Part shown: positions 10,553 to 61,569 of the stretch, piece after piece | How the letters are laid out: every line of letters starts with the position of its first letter | Numbering within the stretch: the first letter of the stretch is position 1 | Assembly: GCF_044647545.1 (NCBI RefSeq) | Contig: NZ_CP172818.1 | Strand: one strand, 5' to 3' | Origin: Escherichia coli | GTDB taxonomy: Bacteria > Pseudomonadota > Gammaproteobacteria > Enterobacterales > Enterobacteriaceae | Length of the DNA stretch: 64,000 bases | Translations under genes and position numbers: made by a program | The notes under the pieces: model-generated | What the model was told of the DNA's origin: nothing | The model's database searches: none | The model's input: only the letters and a program-made list of their open reading frames with translations

Positions 10553-10559
10553 CTGTTGA

Positions 10560-11202
10560 TCTCGTTTCCCAGATCCAGCAGCTGCTGAGGTTGTCATAAA
10601 ACAGGCCGAAGCTAAACGTCATTGCGGCGGGTGATGGCTAATGGAATGTGTTGTACAGCGGGTCAGTACTCACGGCGTTGTAGCCCATCGCGTCGAGGTT
10701 ACGCATCTCGTAACGTTTACCGTTGCGTTGCAGGTCGCCGGCTTTATCTCCGAGGCCATAAAAGCGTTCATCTTTACGACGGCTCTGATAGTGCGCCACA
10801 CCGTCACCGTGGGCATTCAGCAGATAAGCGCTGGTCGGTCGGTCATTCACTAACGGCAGCCATTTCGTCTTCGTTGTTACTATAGTGCCACTCCAGCCAC
10901 AGCGGCTGGTGAACGGTGGACCAGTGACTCGGTGGCGATAACCACGGCGTTGTTGTGCTGGTTCAGGTTCATGCGGGCAGGCCAGCCGCTGGACATTTTG
11001 CCGGCCGCGCCCTTCCCGATGGCACATCCTGCTGGAGCAATGCTCCAGGTGCGATCCAGCGCCAGCTCGCCTTTGCGTTTTAACAGCACGCGGAACAGAA
11101 TTCCAGCACGTACAGACGCAATACGCCCGCCATCGACCAGCAGTTCAACGTGGTGGGCAGACTGTTTGAGGTCCAGTTTTTCAGCGTTTCGACGTTGCAC
11201 AT
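10560..11202 (-). pseudogene. Remnant of a glycoside hydrolase family 31 gene (alpha-glucosidase/alpha-xylosidase-like): 5' portion only, frameshifted and truncated at the ybiT junction
   Basis: Minus-strand fragments carry GH31 N-terminal-region signatures (...LDLKQSAHHVELLVDGGRIASV...; ...ERFYGLGDKAGDLQRNGKRYEMRNLDAMGY...), spread over at least two frames, and only about 210 codons remain of a family that is normally about 700-800 aa. Confidence 0.55.
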
Positions 11203-11207
11203 CACTC

Positions 11208-12445
11208 TCAGGCGCGTTTTGCGCGACGTTCAGCAATAAAGGTGACCAGGAAGAAAGCGCCAATCAGGTCAAAGAAGCCCATGGCGATAAACAGGGCTTA
11301 AAGCCGATTTTGTCAGCAGTAACCCCGATAATCAGGGAGAAACAGGAAACTTGCTATCGACGCGGCAGAACCGCGCATGCCGTTACAGTGGCCATCTGAC
11401 CTTTGTCGAGGATTCCACTACTAATGCGCTAAGCATGCAGGAGATGATCTGGTCAACCGAAGCCGCCTATGGAAGATAAGGACGATGGCGATATGGGTTA
11501 TCCAGAAAGGCCATCACCGCCAGCGAAACCATCAGGAATGCGCCACTGACCGATCTATGCGCAATGGAGTTCACACTGACTCAGCCCAAACAGGCGGGTG
11601 TAAAGTTTGGTCAGATAGCCGCTGGCAATACTGCCAAGATCAGCGGCGAAGGAACGGCAACCAGGCGAAAGAGTGCGATCTGCTTCAGGTCGATGCCATA
11701 GGCATCTGGACAGGTATAGCGGAACCCAGAAACTCATCACCGCCCACGCCGGTTCTGCCATAAAGGCTGGGATAGTGATACCGTAAAAGCGTTTATTTTT
11801 GCCCACGGTTTTCAGTGCGGTCAGAAAGGGTAACTTGACCGGGGAGCTTCGTTATCCTGGCGGAGCAACCAGCTTGGCTTCGCTGAAGGTCAGGATGCTT
11901 ATCCGGGTTGCGATAAAACCCACCACAGCACCACCCACAGCATCGCCAGGATGCCAGTGGCATAAATGCGCCCTGCCAGCGAATGAAGCGTGGGCAAAAT
12001 AGATAATCGGTGGGGCCAGCATGGCACCGATGGAGTCTACGTCTGCCCAGCGGCGATCGGGCGTTGCGATTTTGGAAACCATTCACCTCATAGTTTTGGG
12101 GTTTGCCGGGGTGGCCGCGGCTTCCGCACCGCCCGATAAAGAAGCGCAACAGCGCCAGATGTACCCAGTTTCCCGCCCCCGCATGCATCAGACAGGCCAG
12201 CGCCCACAGCCCCTGTGCAGATCAGAAGCCCAGTTTGAGGCCAATGACGTCAATGAGCCACCGCATAACGGTTGAAATAGGGTATAGGCGAGTTGGAAAG
12301 CACCTACAATCCAGGAATATTGTTTTGTGCAATCCCCAGGCTGCTTTTCAACTCGGCGTACACCCAGCGAATTACGTGTGATGTAGTTGACAGTAACACC
12401 GAGCAAAAAAAGGACCAGCATCCACCAACGCAGATTTTTGAACAC
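11208..12445 (-). pseudogene. Decayed MFS transporter gene (N-terminus resembles ExuT/DgoT-type anion:cation symporters), multiple frameshifts
   Basis: ORF 12188..12445 begins MFKNLRWWMLVLFLLGVTVNYITRN (MFS N-terminal TM1 pattern); a C-terminal piece ...ALFIAMGFFDLIGAFFLVTFIAERRAKRA ends at a stop at 11210..11208; the body is broken into ORFs under 135 aa in different frames. Confidence 0.5.
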
Positions 12446-12769
12446 CGGCGTGGTTTACTGGCAGTCATATCAATCGATACCCACTGATATGCACTCCACA
12501 GAATGGTATAGGGGGGCGGCAACGTCAGACGGAGTTGTCACACCACTTTTAACCTTTTGATAAATAAAGTCTTTATTGTCTGTTTTTCCATTGTTCTTGT
12601 ACTGGAAGTTGTTGTCACATTTTTACAGTAAGAGACACTAAAAGCGAAAAAGAAAGCGGGTTTTGTGCACGTTTTTCCATGCGGCCCATACATTACTGAA
12701 ATGGATTTAATGCCAGACAGAATGGGCTTTTTTTGCTCATGAAAATTCTGTCATTTCCGAATTAGAGGA

Positions 12770-13800
12770 CATCAGAAATCGGCAAAGAGCTTAAATTGCC
12801 GATATCGCCGCACGTACCGGATTATCGCCGATACGGTTTCGCGGGTGCTGCTGGCAAAGCGAATACCAGTGCACGCGCTCGCGAACAGGCGCTGGCCTGC
12901 GCGTGAGTTGGGCGCGATGGATGGCATGGCAGCAGGTCATGTTGCTGAATACAACTCATCATTTTGCGCCGCAACGCGCGTTTGACCAACGATCTGATAT
13001 CTTTTATTACCTGGTGTGATCCAGCATCAGCAAAGCGTTATCGCCCGCATGAAGTGCGGCTGCGTTACTGCGTGTTAAGGTAGTTCTACAGCTGATCCCT
13101 GGCGTGATCTGGCGGCATGAATGAAGCAGATACGCAGGCGGCGATCCTGCTGGGGATCGACGATCCGCACATCCATGATCTGGCCGCCGATCGCTAAGCC
13201 TTGCGCTGATCGACTGCTGGTGATGAACGAATGCGCCTCCCGACGATTGCGCCGGACCATCGGTTAATCGGCGTGTCTGCCGCCCGCTATCTGTTTGAAA
13301 TGGGTCACCGGGAGGTGATGAACGTTATGTGCCTGCGCTCGGCCACACTATGGAGCAGCGGTTTGCAGGGATCAAAGAATCATGGCGTCAGCATAATCTG
13401 GCCTTTCACCATGACCGTCATTTGCTGAATATCAGCAGTTTTCTCAGCGCTAAAGAAGCGGAAGAAGGTCGGAGCGCGGCCTGATGCCGCCAATGGCAAT
13501 ACGTTGCCGACGGCGTTTCTGGTCGGCGGGGATTTTTATGGCGGCGGGAACGGTAAATGCGCTACATCGTCGTGGTCTGCGCGTACCACAGGATGTCTCG
13601 GTGATGAGTATCGATGGTCTTCAATCTTGCGGCAATCGAGGATGTTCCCGACGGCTGTGACGTGCCACGCGATCAGCTAAGGGTTAAGTGGTGCAAATGT
13701 TGCAACAGCGGCTGATTCGCCGGATGTCTGCGGTGGGCTCGCTGCTGCTGCACGGACGATTAGCGGTGCGGACGCGCGGCGGTTGCCCAGGAAAAGGGAA
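12770..13800 (+). pseudogene. Decayed LacI-family transcriptional regulator gene, multiple frameshifts
   Basis: HTH-like IADIAARTGLSP continues in another frame as DTVSRVLLAK...ARELG; the C-terminal region contains ...GLRVPQDVSVMSIDG..., typical of LacI/GalR effector domains, but split across frames with stops. Confidence 0.5.
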
Positions 13801-13833
13801 CACCGCCGTGGAACGGGAAGGGCTGTACGACAA

Positions 13834-32779: not shown

Positions 32780-33700
32780 ATATTATACCCCTTAATCAAG
32801 GGTACTAATGAATTGGTAAATCATTTCAAACATTTTACTTTGCAAAAACTTCCGGCCCTTTTATTCCAATGTATTCAAAAAACGCAATGCCGGCCCCTTC
32901 TTTTTTTTTCTTTTCCTCCCCTTTTCTAAAACTTTTTTTTTTAAATTCCCTTTTGTTCCAAAACCGGGTGGATGCCCCGTCCGGCGGGCCTTTTTCTCTT
33001 CTCCCCCCTTTGTTTTTGTTTTGCTTATGGGCCGCACTCTCGGGTTTGTGACTTAAGGGGAAGGACAAACTTCCAAACAACAAACAGACCCACATTTCTT
33101 TCCTTTCTTTTCAATTTAATTTTTTTTTTTTTCTCCCAAAAAAAAAACAAATTCAAAAAAAATCTTTTTTTATTGCTAAAGGCCAGAAATGCATTTGCCA
33201 TTTTTTTGTAGGCCGCCAGTTCATCATCTTCGATTTCTTTGGTTCCTTTACTACTTAGACCACTCTTGGACCAACCATCATAAAAAAACACATGATTTGC
33301 TGATTTAAAAAAAATAATTTTTTTGCCTCCCCCTCTTTCTTTTTGAGGGGGAAATTTTTTTTAAGAACACCCCAACCTAAATCACCCTCCCATATGCCCT
33401 CCATCACTTCTCCAGCGCAAGCCATAAAAATTTTATATTAAAAACCAAGTTTTTTTTGTTTTGCGGAATCTTTCCCTTATACACACCCATACACCCATCT
33501 TTTGTTATTGTTTATATTATAAAAATTATTCTTTTTTAAAAAAAATTGAAAAAAAAAATTTATTTTGGAAAAAAAAAGGAGGGTTGCCCGAAGGTTTTTT
33601 TTTTTTTGATTTATGGGGGGGATTTTTGGGAAGGAAAGGAAAGGGGGGAGGGAAGGAGAGGAAGAAAAAAAAAAAATTAATTTAGATTTCTGCCTTAAGA
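32780..33700. other. Low-complexity, homopolymer-rich non-coding tract between convergent dgcI and rimO; origin unclear (possible assembly artefact or foreign/synthetic insert)
   Basis: Runs of at least 10 T, at least 10 A and 7 G, plus GA-rich and CT-rich blocks (e.g. ggaaggaaaggaaaggggggagggaaggagagg); only short Lys/Phe/Gly-rich ORFs; unlike the surrounding E. coli sequence. Confidence 0.6.
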
Positions 33701-44417: not shown

Positions 44418-44954
44418 ATGCGTCGCGCTAACGATCCGCAACGGCGAGAAAAAATTATCCAGGCCACGCTGGAGGCGGTGAAACTTTATGGAATACATGC
44501 TGTTACACACCGCAAAATTGCTACCCTTGCCGGGGTACCGTTGGGATCGATGACTTACTATTTTTCAGGAATTGATGAGTTGTTGCTGGAGGCGTTCAGC
44601 CGTTTTACTGAGATCATGTCCCGGCAATATCAGGCATTTTTTAGCGATGTTAGTGATGCTCCGGGCGCATGCCAGGCTATCACCGATATGATCTACAGCT
44701 CACAGGTTGCAACGCCGGATAACATGGAGCTGATGTACCAGCTCTACGCGCTGGCTAGCCGAAAACCGCTATTAAAAACGGTAATGCAAAACTGGATGCA
44801 GCGCAGTCAGCAAACGCTCGAACAATGGTTTGAACCCGGAACCGCCCGCGCGCTTGATGCGTTTATTGAGGGGATGACGCTGCATTTTGTCACCGACCGT
44901 AAGCCGCTATCGCGCGAGGAGATTTTGAGGATGGTTGAGAGGGTTGCAGGGTAG
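44418..44954 (+). CDS. rcdA: TetR-family transcriptional regulator RcdA
   Basis: Track ORF 44388..44954; the recognised start is [19 protein letters not shown] at 44418; TetR-type HTH. Confidence 0.9.
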
Positions 44955-44973
44955 TAGATAAATTTCAGGCAAC

Positions 44974-45052
44974 AAAAAACCCACCAACCTTGAACCGAAA
45001 TGGCGGGGTTGATGGGCTCCACAAAATGGGGACATCAAAGAAAAGCAGTGGC
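44974..45052 (-). ncRNA. rybB: RybB small RNA (sigmaE-dependent, Hfq-binding; represses outer membrane protein mRNAs)
   Basis: The reverse complement reads gccactgcttttctttgatgtccccattttgtggagcccatcaaccccgccatttcggttcaaggttggtgggtttttt, matching RybB as I recall it, including the terminator hairpin and U-tail; located between rcdA and ybjL as in K-12. Confidence 0.85.
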
Positions 45053-45128
45053 ACTAATTAAGACTGATGCCCTGCGGAAAAGTTCTGCGGTTGTGCAAAA
45101 AAATTTCATTTTCAGGGCAACTTCAGTT

Positions 45129-46814
45129 TTATCCTAATCCTGGCCATACCATGACGATGATTGTCCCTGCTAGCGTCAGCAGGACGTTGGCGATTGCATA
45201 GGTGCCCGCATAGCCCAGCGCCGGGATGTTACTGCGAGCTGTATCACTGATGATCTCCATTGCCGGCGCGCAGGTGCGTGCGCCCATCATTGCGCCGAAC
45301 AACAGTGCGCGGTTCATTCGCAATACATAAGCACCGAACAAGAAGCAGATAACCACTGGCACCAGACTGACAATCAATCCGGCAATCAACATTTGACCGC
45401 CAATCGCGCCCAGGCCGTTATTAATACCGCTACCGGCGCTCAGACCAACGCCTGCCATAAACACCATCAAGCCGAACTCTTTCACCATGCTTAATGCACC
45501 TTGCGGAATGTAACCGAAGGTCGGGTGGTTAGCACGCATAAAGCCCAGCATAATTCCGGCGAATAACAACCCGGCAGCGTTCCCCATGCCGAAACTGAAT
45601 GTGCTGAACTGGAAGGTGATCATCCCGATCATCAGCCCAATAACAAAGAAGGCGCAGAATGCCAGCAAGTCAGTGACCTGGCTGTGAATCGAGATAAAGC
45701 CGATGCGATCGGCGATGGTTTTTACGCGACGGGCATCGCCGCTGACTTGTAAAACGTCACCTTTGTTAAGCACGACGTTGTCATCAATCGGCATCTCAAT
45801 CTGGCTACGAATGACGCGGTTAAGGAAGCAACCGTGATCGGTCAACTTCAGTTGTGCGAGACGTTTGCCTACAGCGTTATGGTTTTTAACGACCACTTCT
45901 TCAGTGACGATACGCATGTCGAGAAGGTCACGATCGAAAACTTCTTTGCCATTACGGAAACTGGGATCGAGTCGGGCGTGGGCGTCGGGGTAGCCTACCA
46001 ACGCTATTTCATCGCCCATTTGTAGCACGGCATCACCGTCTGGATTTGCCAGAATCCCGTTACGCCGAATACGTTCAATGTAACAGCCAGTTTGTCGATA
46101 AATACCCAGTTCACGCAGATTTTTGCCGTCGGTCCAGGCCACCAGCTCCGGGCCGACGCGGTAGGCGCGGATCACCGGTAAATAAACCTTACGGTTGGCA
46201 TCAGTGTCCAGGCCACGTTCGCGGGCGATTTGCTGGGCGCTGGTCTGTAAGTCCTGATGCTGCAATTTCGGCAAGTAACGCGCACCAACAATCAAACTCA
46301 CCAGACCGATTAAATAGGTTAAGGCATATCCGAGGCTCAGATTATCCAGCGCCAGTGAGAGCTGCCTGCTTTCCATACCGGAATGACGCAGTGTATCGCC
46401 AGCACCGACCAAAACCGGTGTTGACGTCATAGAGCCTGCTAACATACCGGCCGTCAGGCCAATATCCCAGCCAAACAGCTTACCTAACCCTAAGGCGATG
46501 ACCAGCGCACTGCCAACCATCACCAGTGCTAACATTAGGTAATTTTTCCCATCGCGAAAAAAAATGGAAAAAAAGTTCGGTCCGGCTTCGACCCCGACGC
46601 AGAAAATAAACAGCATAAAGCCAAGATTAAGCGCGTCGGTGTTAATGCTGAAATGTTGTTGGCCTAATAACAGCGATACGACTAAAACGCCAATGGAATT
46701 ACCCAGTTGGATCGAACCAAGTCGTAATTTCCCGAGACATAGCCCAAGCGCGAGGACCACAAATAATAACAGAATGTAATTCCCATTTAACAATTCGGCG
46801 ACGTTTATATTCAC
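45129..46814 (-). CDS. ybjL: Putative transporter with duplicated membrane domains and central TrkA-C/RCK-C domains (AAE family)
   Basis: 561-aa intact ORF; matches YbjL. Confidence 0.9.
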
Positions 46815-57574: not shown

Positions 57575-57612
57575 GTAGGCCGGATAAGGCGTCCACGCCG
57601 CATCCGGCATCA
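57575..57612. repeat. REP (repetitive extragenic palindromic) element
   Basis: tgtaggccggataaggcgtccacgccgcatccggcatc: the classic E. coli REP palindrome (GCCGGATAAGGCG...CGCCGCATCCGGC) in the artJ-artM intergenic region. Confidence 0.8.
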
Positions 57613-57624
57613 GACGCAGCCAAA

Positions 57625-59015: not shown

Positions 59016-59747
59016 TTACTTCTGGAACCATTTGTTGTAGATGGTTTCGTAAGTGCCATCTTTCTTCACTTTTTCCAGCGCAGTGTTGAGTTTCTGCTGC
59101 AGTTCAGTGTTGCCCTGACGTACCGCGATGCCGAGACCAGTACCGAAGTAATCTTTATCGGTCACTTTATCGCCCACTGCCGCCAGTTTCGGGTTGTCTT
59201 TCAGCCACTCGGTGACCACTGCGGTGTCACCGAATACGCTGTCGATACGACCGTTTTGCAGATCCAGTTTTGCGTTCTGGTAGCTGTCATACGGAACGGT
59301 GGTGATTTCCGGGTGCTTATCCATAATGAACTTCTGGTGTGTCGTCCCGTTCTGAACGCCGACTTTTTTGCCTTTCAGCTGATCAACACTGGTGTATTTA
59401 CCCTGCTGACCCACAAACAGGGCAGAGTTGTCATAGTAAGGGGTGGTAAACAGCACCTGCTTTTCACGTTCTGGGGTGATATCCATCCCGGCCATCACCG
59501 CTTCCACGCGACGGAATTTCAGGCTTGGGATCAGGCTGTCAAATGCCTGGTTGGAGAAAGTGCAGGTTGCATCAATCTCTTTACACAGCGCTTGTGCCAG
59601 GTCGACGTCAAAACCAACGATCTGGTTGTTTGCATCAATCGATTCAAACGGAGGATAGGAGGCTTCGGTAGCAAAACGAATAGTTTCGGCAGCTGTGGCG
59701 GAAAGACTAAAACCTGCAATTAACGCGGCAATCAGAACTTTTTTCAT
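59016..59747 (-). CDS. artI: Arginine-binding periplasmic protein ArtI
   Basis: 243-aa ORF with signal peptide; paralogue of ArtJ. Confidence 0.95.
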   Translation of the reverse strand: MKKVLIAALIAGFSLSATAAETIRFATEASYPPFESIDANNQIVGFDVDLAQALCKEIDATCTFSNQAFDSLIPSLKFRRVEAVMAGMDITPEREKQVLFTTPYYDNSALFVGQQGKYTSVDQLKGKKVGVQNGTTHQKFIMDKHPEITTVPYDSYQNAKLDLQNGRIDSVFGDTAVVTEWLKDNPKLAAVGDKVTDKDYFGTGLGIAVRQGNTELQQKLNTALEKVKKDGTYETIYNKWFQK

Positions 59748-61226: not shown

Positions 61227-61305
61227 AATCATTTCCTTATTAGCTTGTTCTGAAAAATGGCGTTATACGATAATAGATGATATCCTTTCAATACCATCTT
61301 AAAAG

Positions 61306-61569
61306 CACAAAACAATACTTTATATTATAATAATAAAAATATATACTAATAATTAAAAAAATTAACATATACAACACATAATAAAAAAAAATAATAATTT
61401 AATATAAAAAAATAATTAAAAATTCTAAAAAACTTTAAATAATTTTAATAACAATCAAAATTATTAAATATTAAATCAAAAAAAAAAATTTTTAAAATAA
61501 AAAAAAAACAAATAAAAAAAATAATAATAAAACTATTAAATTATAAAAAAAAACAAATAATATTAAAAA
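61306..61569. other. Extreme A/T tract with no G on the + strand for about 264 bp, between ybjP and ybjQ; origin unclear
   Basis: Composition read directly: from about 61306 to 61569 the + strand carries no G and only sparse C; A/T-only repeats such as aataat, attaaa and A8-10 runs. Confidence 0.6.

Follow-up and report, generated by a model that had tools for sequence, protein, structure and literature searches.

The 79 nucleotides at positions 44974-45052 on the minus strand of the window, the 64 kb stretch of DNA that was analysed, are the rybB gene of Escherichia coli, a reading to which we give a probability of about 98%. RybB is already known; it is a textbook small RNA (sRNA) gene and its occurrence here is an ordinary one. 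The identification had originally been made from the sequence, with a covariance-model search set beforehand as its test, and this search supports it. A scan of the window against Rfam 15 with cmscan gave a match to the RybB family RF00110 at 44971-45049 on the minus strand, with 104.1 bits (the gathering score being 40 bits) and E 2.5e-20, which spans model positions 1-79 of 79 and is not truncated. RybB is the sole Rfam family above gathering in the whole 64 kb window, and a permissive scan up to E 0.5 returned nothing further near the rybB site. The match is offset by 3 nt from 44974-45052 because the Rfam model begins at nucleotide 4 of the RNA and extends 3 nt beyond the U-run.

The interval 44974-45052 coincides exactly with the ncRNA rybB of K-12 MG1655 (b4417, 887979-888057, 79 nt), so that the boundaries first proposed for the gene were exact. 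Read from the window, its minus strand is GCCACUGCUUUUCUUUGAUGUCCCCAUUUUGUGGAGCCCAUCAACCCCGCCAUUUCGGUUCAAGGUUGGUGGGUUUUUU. Identity to K-12 rybB amounts to 78/79 in a base-for-base alignment and, apart from the phage attachment core considered below, the flanks are identical, the promoter included. The location in the gap between rcdA and ybjL, the strand, the length, the terminator hairpin and the U-tail had all been described correctly, as judged from the sequence, its predicted fold and the K-12 annotation. The parts of the gene and its flanking genes are as follows.

44974..45052, minus strand: rybB gene, 79-nt RybB sRNA, with its first base G at 45052 and the final U of the U6 tail at 44974 (Rfam and K-12 alignment)
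45037..45052, minus strand: 5′ target-pairing (‘seed’) region, RybB nt 1-16, GCCACUGCUUUUCUUU, identical to K-12
44978..45018, minus strand: Rho-independent terminator hairpin, RybB nt 35-75, with a 12-bp stem and a 17-nt loop that holds a small inner 3-bp helix
44974..44979, minus strand: 3′ U6 tail, read from the sequence
45059..45086, minus strand: sigmaE-type promoter, with -35 aGAACTTTT (45078-45086) and -10 GTCTTA (45059-45064)
44418..44954, plus strand: rcdA (ybjK), convergent downstream neighbour (annotation transfer from SMS-3-5 and K-12)
45129..46814, minus strand: ybjL, upstream neighbour on the same strand as rybB (annotation transfer from SMS-3-5 and K-12)

The gene is nearly universal in the species: of 5426 complete E. 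coli genomes, 5418 contain the 79-nt sequence. It is nonetheless absent from the track of open reading frames, as the original prediction had pointed out, and its remark that such a non-coding feature is easy to miss agrees with the state of public annotation. In a sample of 12 RefSeq E. coli genomes, taken across the match ranking, nothing is annotated beneath the rybB match in any of the 12. The window is chromosomal DNA of E. coli. Over 901 nt around rybB the sequence is 100% identical to SMS-3-5, to ST648-type strains and to others, and the whole window shares about 98.5% identity with SMS-3-5, with a few rearranged stretches.

Comparative evidence comes from orthologues collected by scanning for exact matches to 23 nt of the RybB 5′ region, with each species represented by a single genome. 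The scan yielded at least 120 loci, and the matches listed include Escherichia, Salmonella, Citrobacter, Enterobacter, Klebsiella-group genera, Serratia, Yersinia, Xenorhabdus, Proteus and Providencia. From these matches 112 distinct loci were aligned, the window and K-12 among them. The surroundings of the gene are asymmetric in this sample. On the upstream side, where the ybjL stop codon lies 76 nt before the first RybB base, a ybjL homologue on the same strand is the direct neighbour at 84 of the 102 other Enterobacterales loci with enough flanking sequence, among the matches listed. On the downstream side, where the rcdA stop codon lies 19 nt from the RybB 3′ end, the neighbour is variable, and rcdA occupies this position at just 16 of 104 loci among the matches listed.

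Upstream of the gene, the motif GAACTT-N16-TCTTA at 45059-45085 is followed by 6 nt and then by the first RybB base at 45052. Compared with the published sigmaE consensus, which has GGAACTTTT at -35 and GTCAAA at -10 (PMC1804206), the rybB promoter agrees at 8 of 9 positions in the -35 element and at just 4 of 6 in the -10 element; its sequence in the window is identical to that of K-12. Across the 112 aligned loci, GAACTTT and AGTC..A are either invariant or conserved at 90% or more, in contrast to the freely varying spacer. The number of such motifs was also considered as evidence and was rejected: the degenerate pattern GAACTT-N15-17-TCNNA has two matches in the window against 1.34 expected, which is uninformative. 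Since the loose pattern is not enriched by count, the promoter call rests on position and conservation, and it is the motif together with its conservation that here points to a probable dependence of rybB on sigmaE. The second loose match (GAACTT-N17-TCTGA, 59328-59355, plus strand) is at chance level by count.

The target-pairing region at the 5′ end is mostly unpaired in the predicted fold. Its conservation has to be read with the search in mind, since the 23 nt of the search pattern are invariant by construction and are uninformative on this point. The T, G and C just before the pattern were not forced by the search, and they are likewise invariant in the 112 aligned loci. A 4-bp helix, CCAC/GUGG, was also predicted and is unsupported, as 27 of the 112 aligned loci break one of its pairs without a compensating change.

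The 45-nt 3′ part of RybB, which contains the terminator hairpin, has a minimum-energy fold of -20.5 kcal/mol (z -4.17), and 0 of 200 shuffled sequences fold as well. In the 112 aligned loci, pairing is kept at 99% in the 12-bp terminator helix, in which 7 of the 12 pairs have changed on both sides, and the stem occurs in mutually compensated versions: CCCAUCAACC/GGUUGAUGGG, CCCGAUAGUC/GACUAUCGGG, CCCGUUAGUC/GACUAGCGGG and CCAGAGCGUC/GACGCUCGGG. Taken jointly, the three helices tested score 0.223 for covariation, whereas shuffles give 0.105 and none of 500 attains the observed value; shifting the pairing partner by 1 to 3 columns lowers pairing of the whole tested structure to 20-48%. A simple terminator scan missed this hairpin. 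Its 17-nt loop exceeds the 8-nt loop limit of the tool, which is why the hairpin went unflagged, so this result is no evidence against a terminator. The U-run that follows is conserved in nearly all of the 112 aligned loci. In class I sRNAs the 3′ U-tail contacts the proximal face of Hfq, and the U6 tail of the window gene would by analogy provide this contact.

A hairpin followed by a U-run could also be nothing else than the terminator of ybjL, located in its 3′ untranslated region, with no independent RNA gene at the site. The arrangement of the locus is compatible with this: ybjL lies on the same strand and ends 76 nt upstream, the simple scan detected no other terminator-like site between its stop codon and the hairpin, and ybjL is the conserved upstream neighbour at the 84 of 102 loci mentioned above. 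Such a terminator would require the hairpin and tail alone, yet a sigmaE-type promoter conserved across genera stands just upstream, the entire 79 nt fit the RybB covariance model, and an independent sigmaE-dependent transcript has been published (PMC1804206). As a complete account of the site this explanation is therefore very improbable. The RybB hairpin may well, in addition, terminate read-through from ybjL.

The same comparative data bear on whether the region encodes a small protein, a proposal for which three overlapping reading frames in the six-frame list provide the starting point.

44807-45022, minus strand: mechanical ORF of 71 aa, GTG start (six-frame list)
44907-45038, minus strand: mechanical ORF of 43 aa, TTG start (six-frame list)
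45000-45137, plus strand: mechanical ORF of 45 aa, ATG start (six-frame list)

None of the three has an annotation in K-12, in SMS-3-5 or in the genomes sampled, and both minus-strand frames run antisense through rcdA. Moreover, variation across the 112 loci takes the form of 1- and 2-nt indels in the loop and of compensatory, RNA-type changes in the stem, a pattern that is not codon-like. The probability of a coding function is accordingly close to nil, and a structured RNA, namely RybB, is the reading retained.

The single difference between the RybB of the window and that of K-12 is a G in place of A at nucleotide 69 (window position 44984), which converts the U41-A69 pair of the terminator stem into U41-G69. 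The window allele is 100% identical in 738 of 5420 matching complete E. coli records, and 4681 records carry one mismatch. The alignment sets the window beside 111 loci from K-12 and from species representing the rest of the Enterobacterales; none of the 112 loci except the window, among the matches listed, combines G at nucleotide 69 with a CAUCAACC-type stem. The substitution weakens the 3′ hairpin by about 0.6 kcal/mol relative to K-12. No functional change is expected from it, because at this cost the terminator pair is kept as a U-G wobble.

A larger lesion of the same stem was seen in the complete genome of E. coli AR_0017 (NZ_CP024886.1, 2924-3089), in which a 9-nt deletion, GAGCCCATC, removes the 5′ arm of the RybB terminator stem; either rybB is naturally mutated in this strain or the assembly is at fault. 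The possibility of plasmid-borne RybB was pursued through 16 plasmid-labelled records, NZ_CP019246.1 being one of the plasmid-labelled records that contain rybB, and was rejected. The five top-ranked records measure 0.7-4.9 Mb and are evidently chromosome-sized, and pCombat13F7-1 (45 kb), the sole small record inspected, has potF-rimK-ybjL beside genes of a P2-like prophage and is therefore a piece of chromosome under the wrong label.

The 3′ ends of tRNA and sRNA genes are common targets of phages, and the 3′ end of rybB is one of them.

44958..44984, no strand assigned: 27-bp attachment core of P2-like (Felsduovirus) prophages, GTGGGTTTTTTGTTGCCTGAAATTTAT on the RybB strand, duplicated in IR53017

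The core is made up of RybB nt 69-79, the last 11 nt of the RNA, and of 16 nt downstream. In E. coli IR53017 the 27-bp core stands at both ends of a P2-like prophage of about 34 kb, which separates rcdA from rybB and includes integrase, CI, replication genes, capsid, tail, gpD and ogr; an example prophage is that of NZ_CP064103.1, at about 650-35050. In the window the attachment site is empty. In 1129 of 5422 complete E. coli genomes, about a fifth, the 901-nt query does not align as one contiguous stretch, and all six split genomes that were sampled break at 44958/44959. In the scan of other species, ogr homologues lie just downstream of rybB at 7 loci of other species among the matches listed, including Serratia, Shimwellia, Lelliottia and an Enterobacter MAG, and in Klebsiella phage 4LV2017 the annotated attR lies over the RybB sequence. 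That the rybB 3′ end is a P2-like attachment site is already published, as hotspot #29, where Felsduovirus prophages are the only occupants; among more than 1,300 strains, 109 have one inserted into rybB (PMC10121019).

The relationship between phage and host alleles was followed over the 201 nt in which the window was compared with K-12. All five differences (44962, 44966, 44969, 44970 and 44984) fall inside the 27-bp core, over which the window is identical to the phage-borne core while the K-12 allele differs from it at the five positions. The G at nucleotide 69 was therefore considered as a scar of phage integration, a candidate that was rejected on two grounds. In lysogen L6-21 the host A69 is retained at the rybB-side junction, so the G allele is unnecessary for integration; in addition, other genera commonly have GTTGCC after the U-tail, among the aligned loci of the matches listed. 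The allele is thus read as an ordinary host polymorphism at the attachment site. A further idea, for which we see only a slim chance, is that the RybB 3′ end might serve as a polymorphic attachment site whose alleles set susceptibility to Felsduovirus lysogeny, with a small side effect on termination or Hfq binding.

These observations also allow one to ask whether the 3′ part of the interval is only an attachment site or the relic of a P2-like prophage, the resemblance to RybB being secondary. The identity of 44958-44984 with the core that flanks the IR53017 prophage, and the confinement of all five K-12 differences within 201 nt to this core, speak for such an explanation. The core nevertheless covers just the last 11 nt of the RNA, whereas its remaining 68 nt and the promoter match K-12 exactly and are conserved irrespective of whether a species carries prophages, and no phage genes flank the site in the window. 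As the sole explanation it is refuted by the full-length match to the covariance model, and its probability is negligible. The attachment site is an added use of the RybB 3′ end and not an alternative identity for rybB. Other sRNA and tRNA 3′ ends that serve as prophage sites, for example the tmRNA locus, likewise have the 3′ end of an RNA gene duplicated in the phage core, and therefore integration regenerates the gene. In the window the site is unoccupied, and attachment is here a property of the locus at the level of the species.

Several observations concern other parts of the window. The gap between ybiT and ybiU (10554-13830) contains a truncated, indel-riddled relic of an islet encoding a GH31 glycosidase, an MFS transporter and a LacI regulator. 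Of 5426 genomes, 576 carry this islet intact. Aligned with it over 3.6 kb, the relic is 92.4% identical and shows 85 gap openings; it has lost most of the GH31 gene, and its ORFs are no longer than 155 aa. The version found in the window has no match above 92% in any complete genome searched, and it is either a decayed pseudogene islet or the result of poor local sequence quality. At 57578-57615 (plus strand) the Rfam family naRNA4 matches below threshold (37 bits, with gathering at 59.5, and E 0.006), and this is probably a REP element in the art gene region. Two segments are without alignment to SMS-3-5: 32951-33169, inside an HTH-antitoxin/RelE-ParE toxin pair adjoining dgcI, and 61248-61565, in the ybjP-ybjQ gap, where other strains have a pentapeptide-repeat pseudogene or IS1.

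RybB curtails the synthesis of outer-membrane proteins under envelope stress, and for this gene both sigmaE dependence and Hfq binding have been established by experiment in E. coli and Salmonella (PMC1804206, PMC4102768, PMC4911921). In Salmonella, rybB is strictly sigmaE-dependent, and its induction quickly lowers the ompA, ompC, ompD, ompF, ompN, ompS, ompW and fadL mRNAs; Northern blots and promoter fusions revealed an independent, strictly sigmaE-dependent RybB transcript (PMC1804206). In E. coli, RybB and MicA are bound by Hfq and jointly target 31 messages, and among sigmaE promoters theirs rank second and third in strength (PMC4102768). Through its 3′ oligo-U, RybB engages the proximal face of Hfq; annealing of RybB to ompD mRNA is accelerated more than 250-fold by Hfq, and RybB-16, a 5′ fragment of 16 nt, suffices for this annealing (PMC4911921).

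Established work on this gene describes the following mechanism. Unfolded outer-membrane proteins activate sigmaE, upon which the rybB promoter fires and the 79-nt RNA is produced. Hfq binds it through the 3′ U-tail and hairpin, and the unpaired 5′ end, some 16 nt long and built around a core heptamer, pairs with many omp mRNAs, including ompC, ompW, ompA, ompF, fadL and others. Pairing blocks translation and accelerates mRNA decay, which lowers the load of new porins and exerts negative feedback on sigmaE. There are strong grounds to infer that the same mechanism operates in the source strain, since its promoter is unaltered and it retains 78 of the 79 nt. Among omp genes the window contains ompX alone, and no validated RybB target is located there; ompX mRNA has been used as a RybB-independent control (PMC1804206).

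With the RybB of K-12, the gene of the window shares the locus, strand, 79-nt length, 5′ end, promoter, terminator architecture and U6 tail. MicA and MicL, the other sigmaE-dependent sRNAs of E. coli that bind Hfq, follow the same logic, with a sigmaE promoter, Hfq dependence and repression of mRNAs for abundant envelope proteins (PMC4102768). They differ from RybB in locus and in sequence, and neither has an Rfam match at the rybB site. MicL is embedded in the cutC 3′ region; RybB, unlike MicL, is a free-standing intergenic gene.

As an occurrence of a known gene, rybB poses no new biological question here. It is worth listing for completeness of annotation only, as pipelines restricted to ORFs overlook RybB, which is among the strongest members of the sigmaE envelope-stress regulon. 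The use of its 3′ end as a phage attachment site helps to interpret strain-to-strain differences at the locus.
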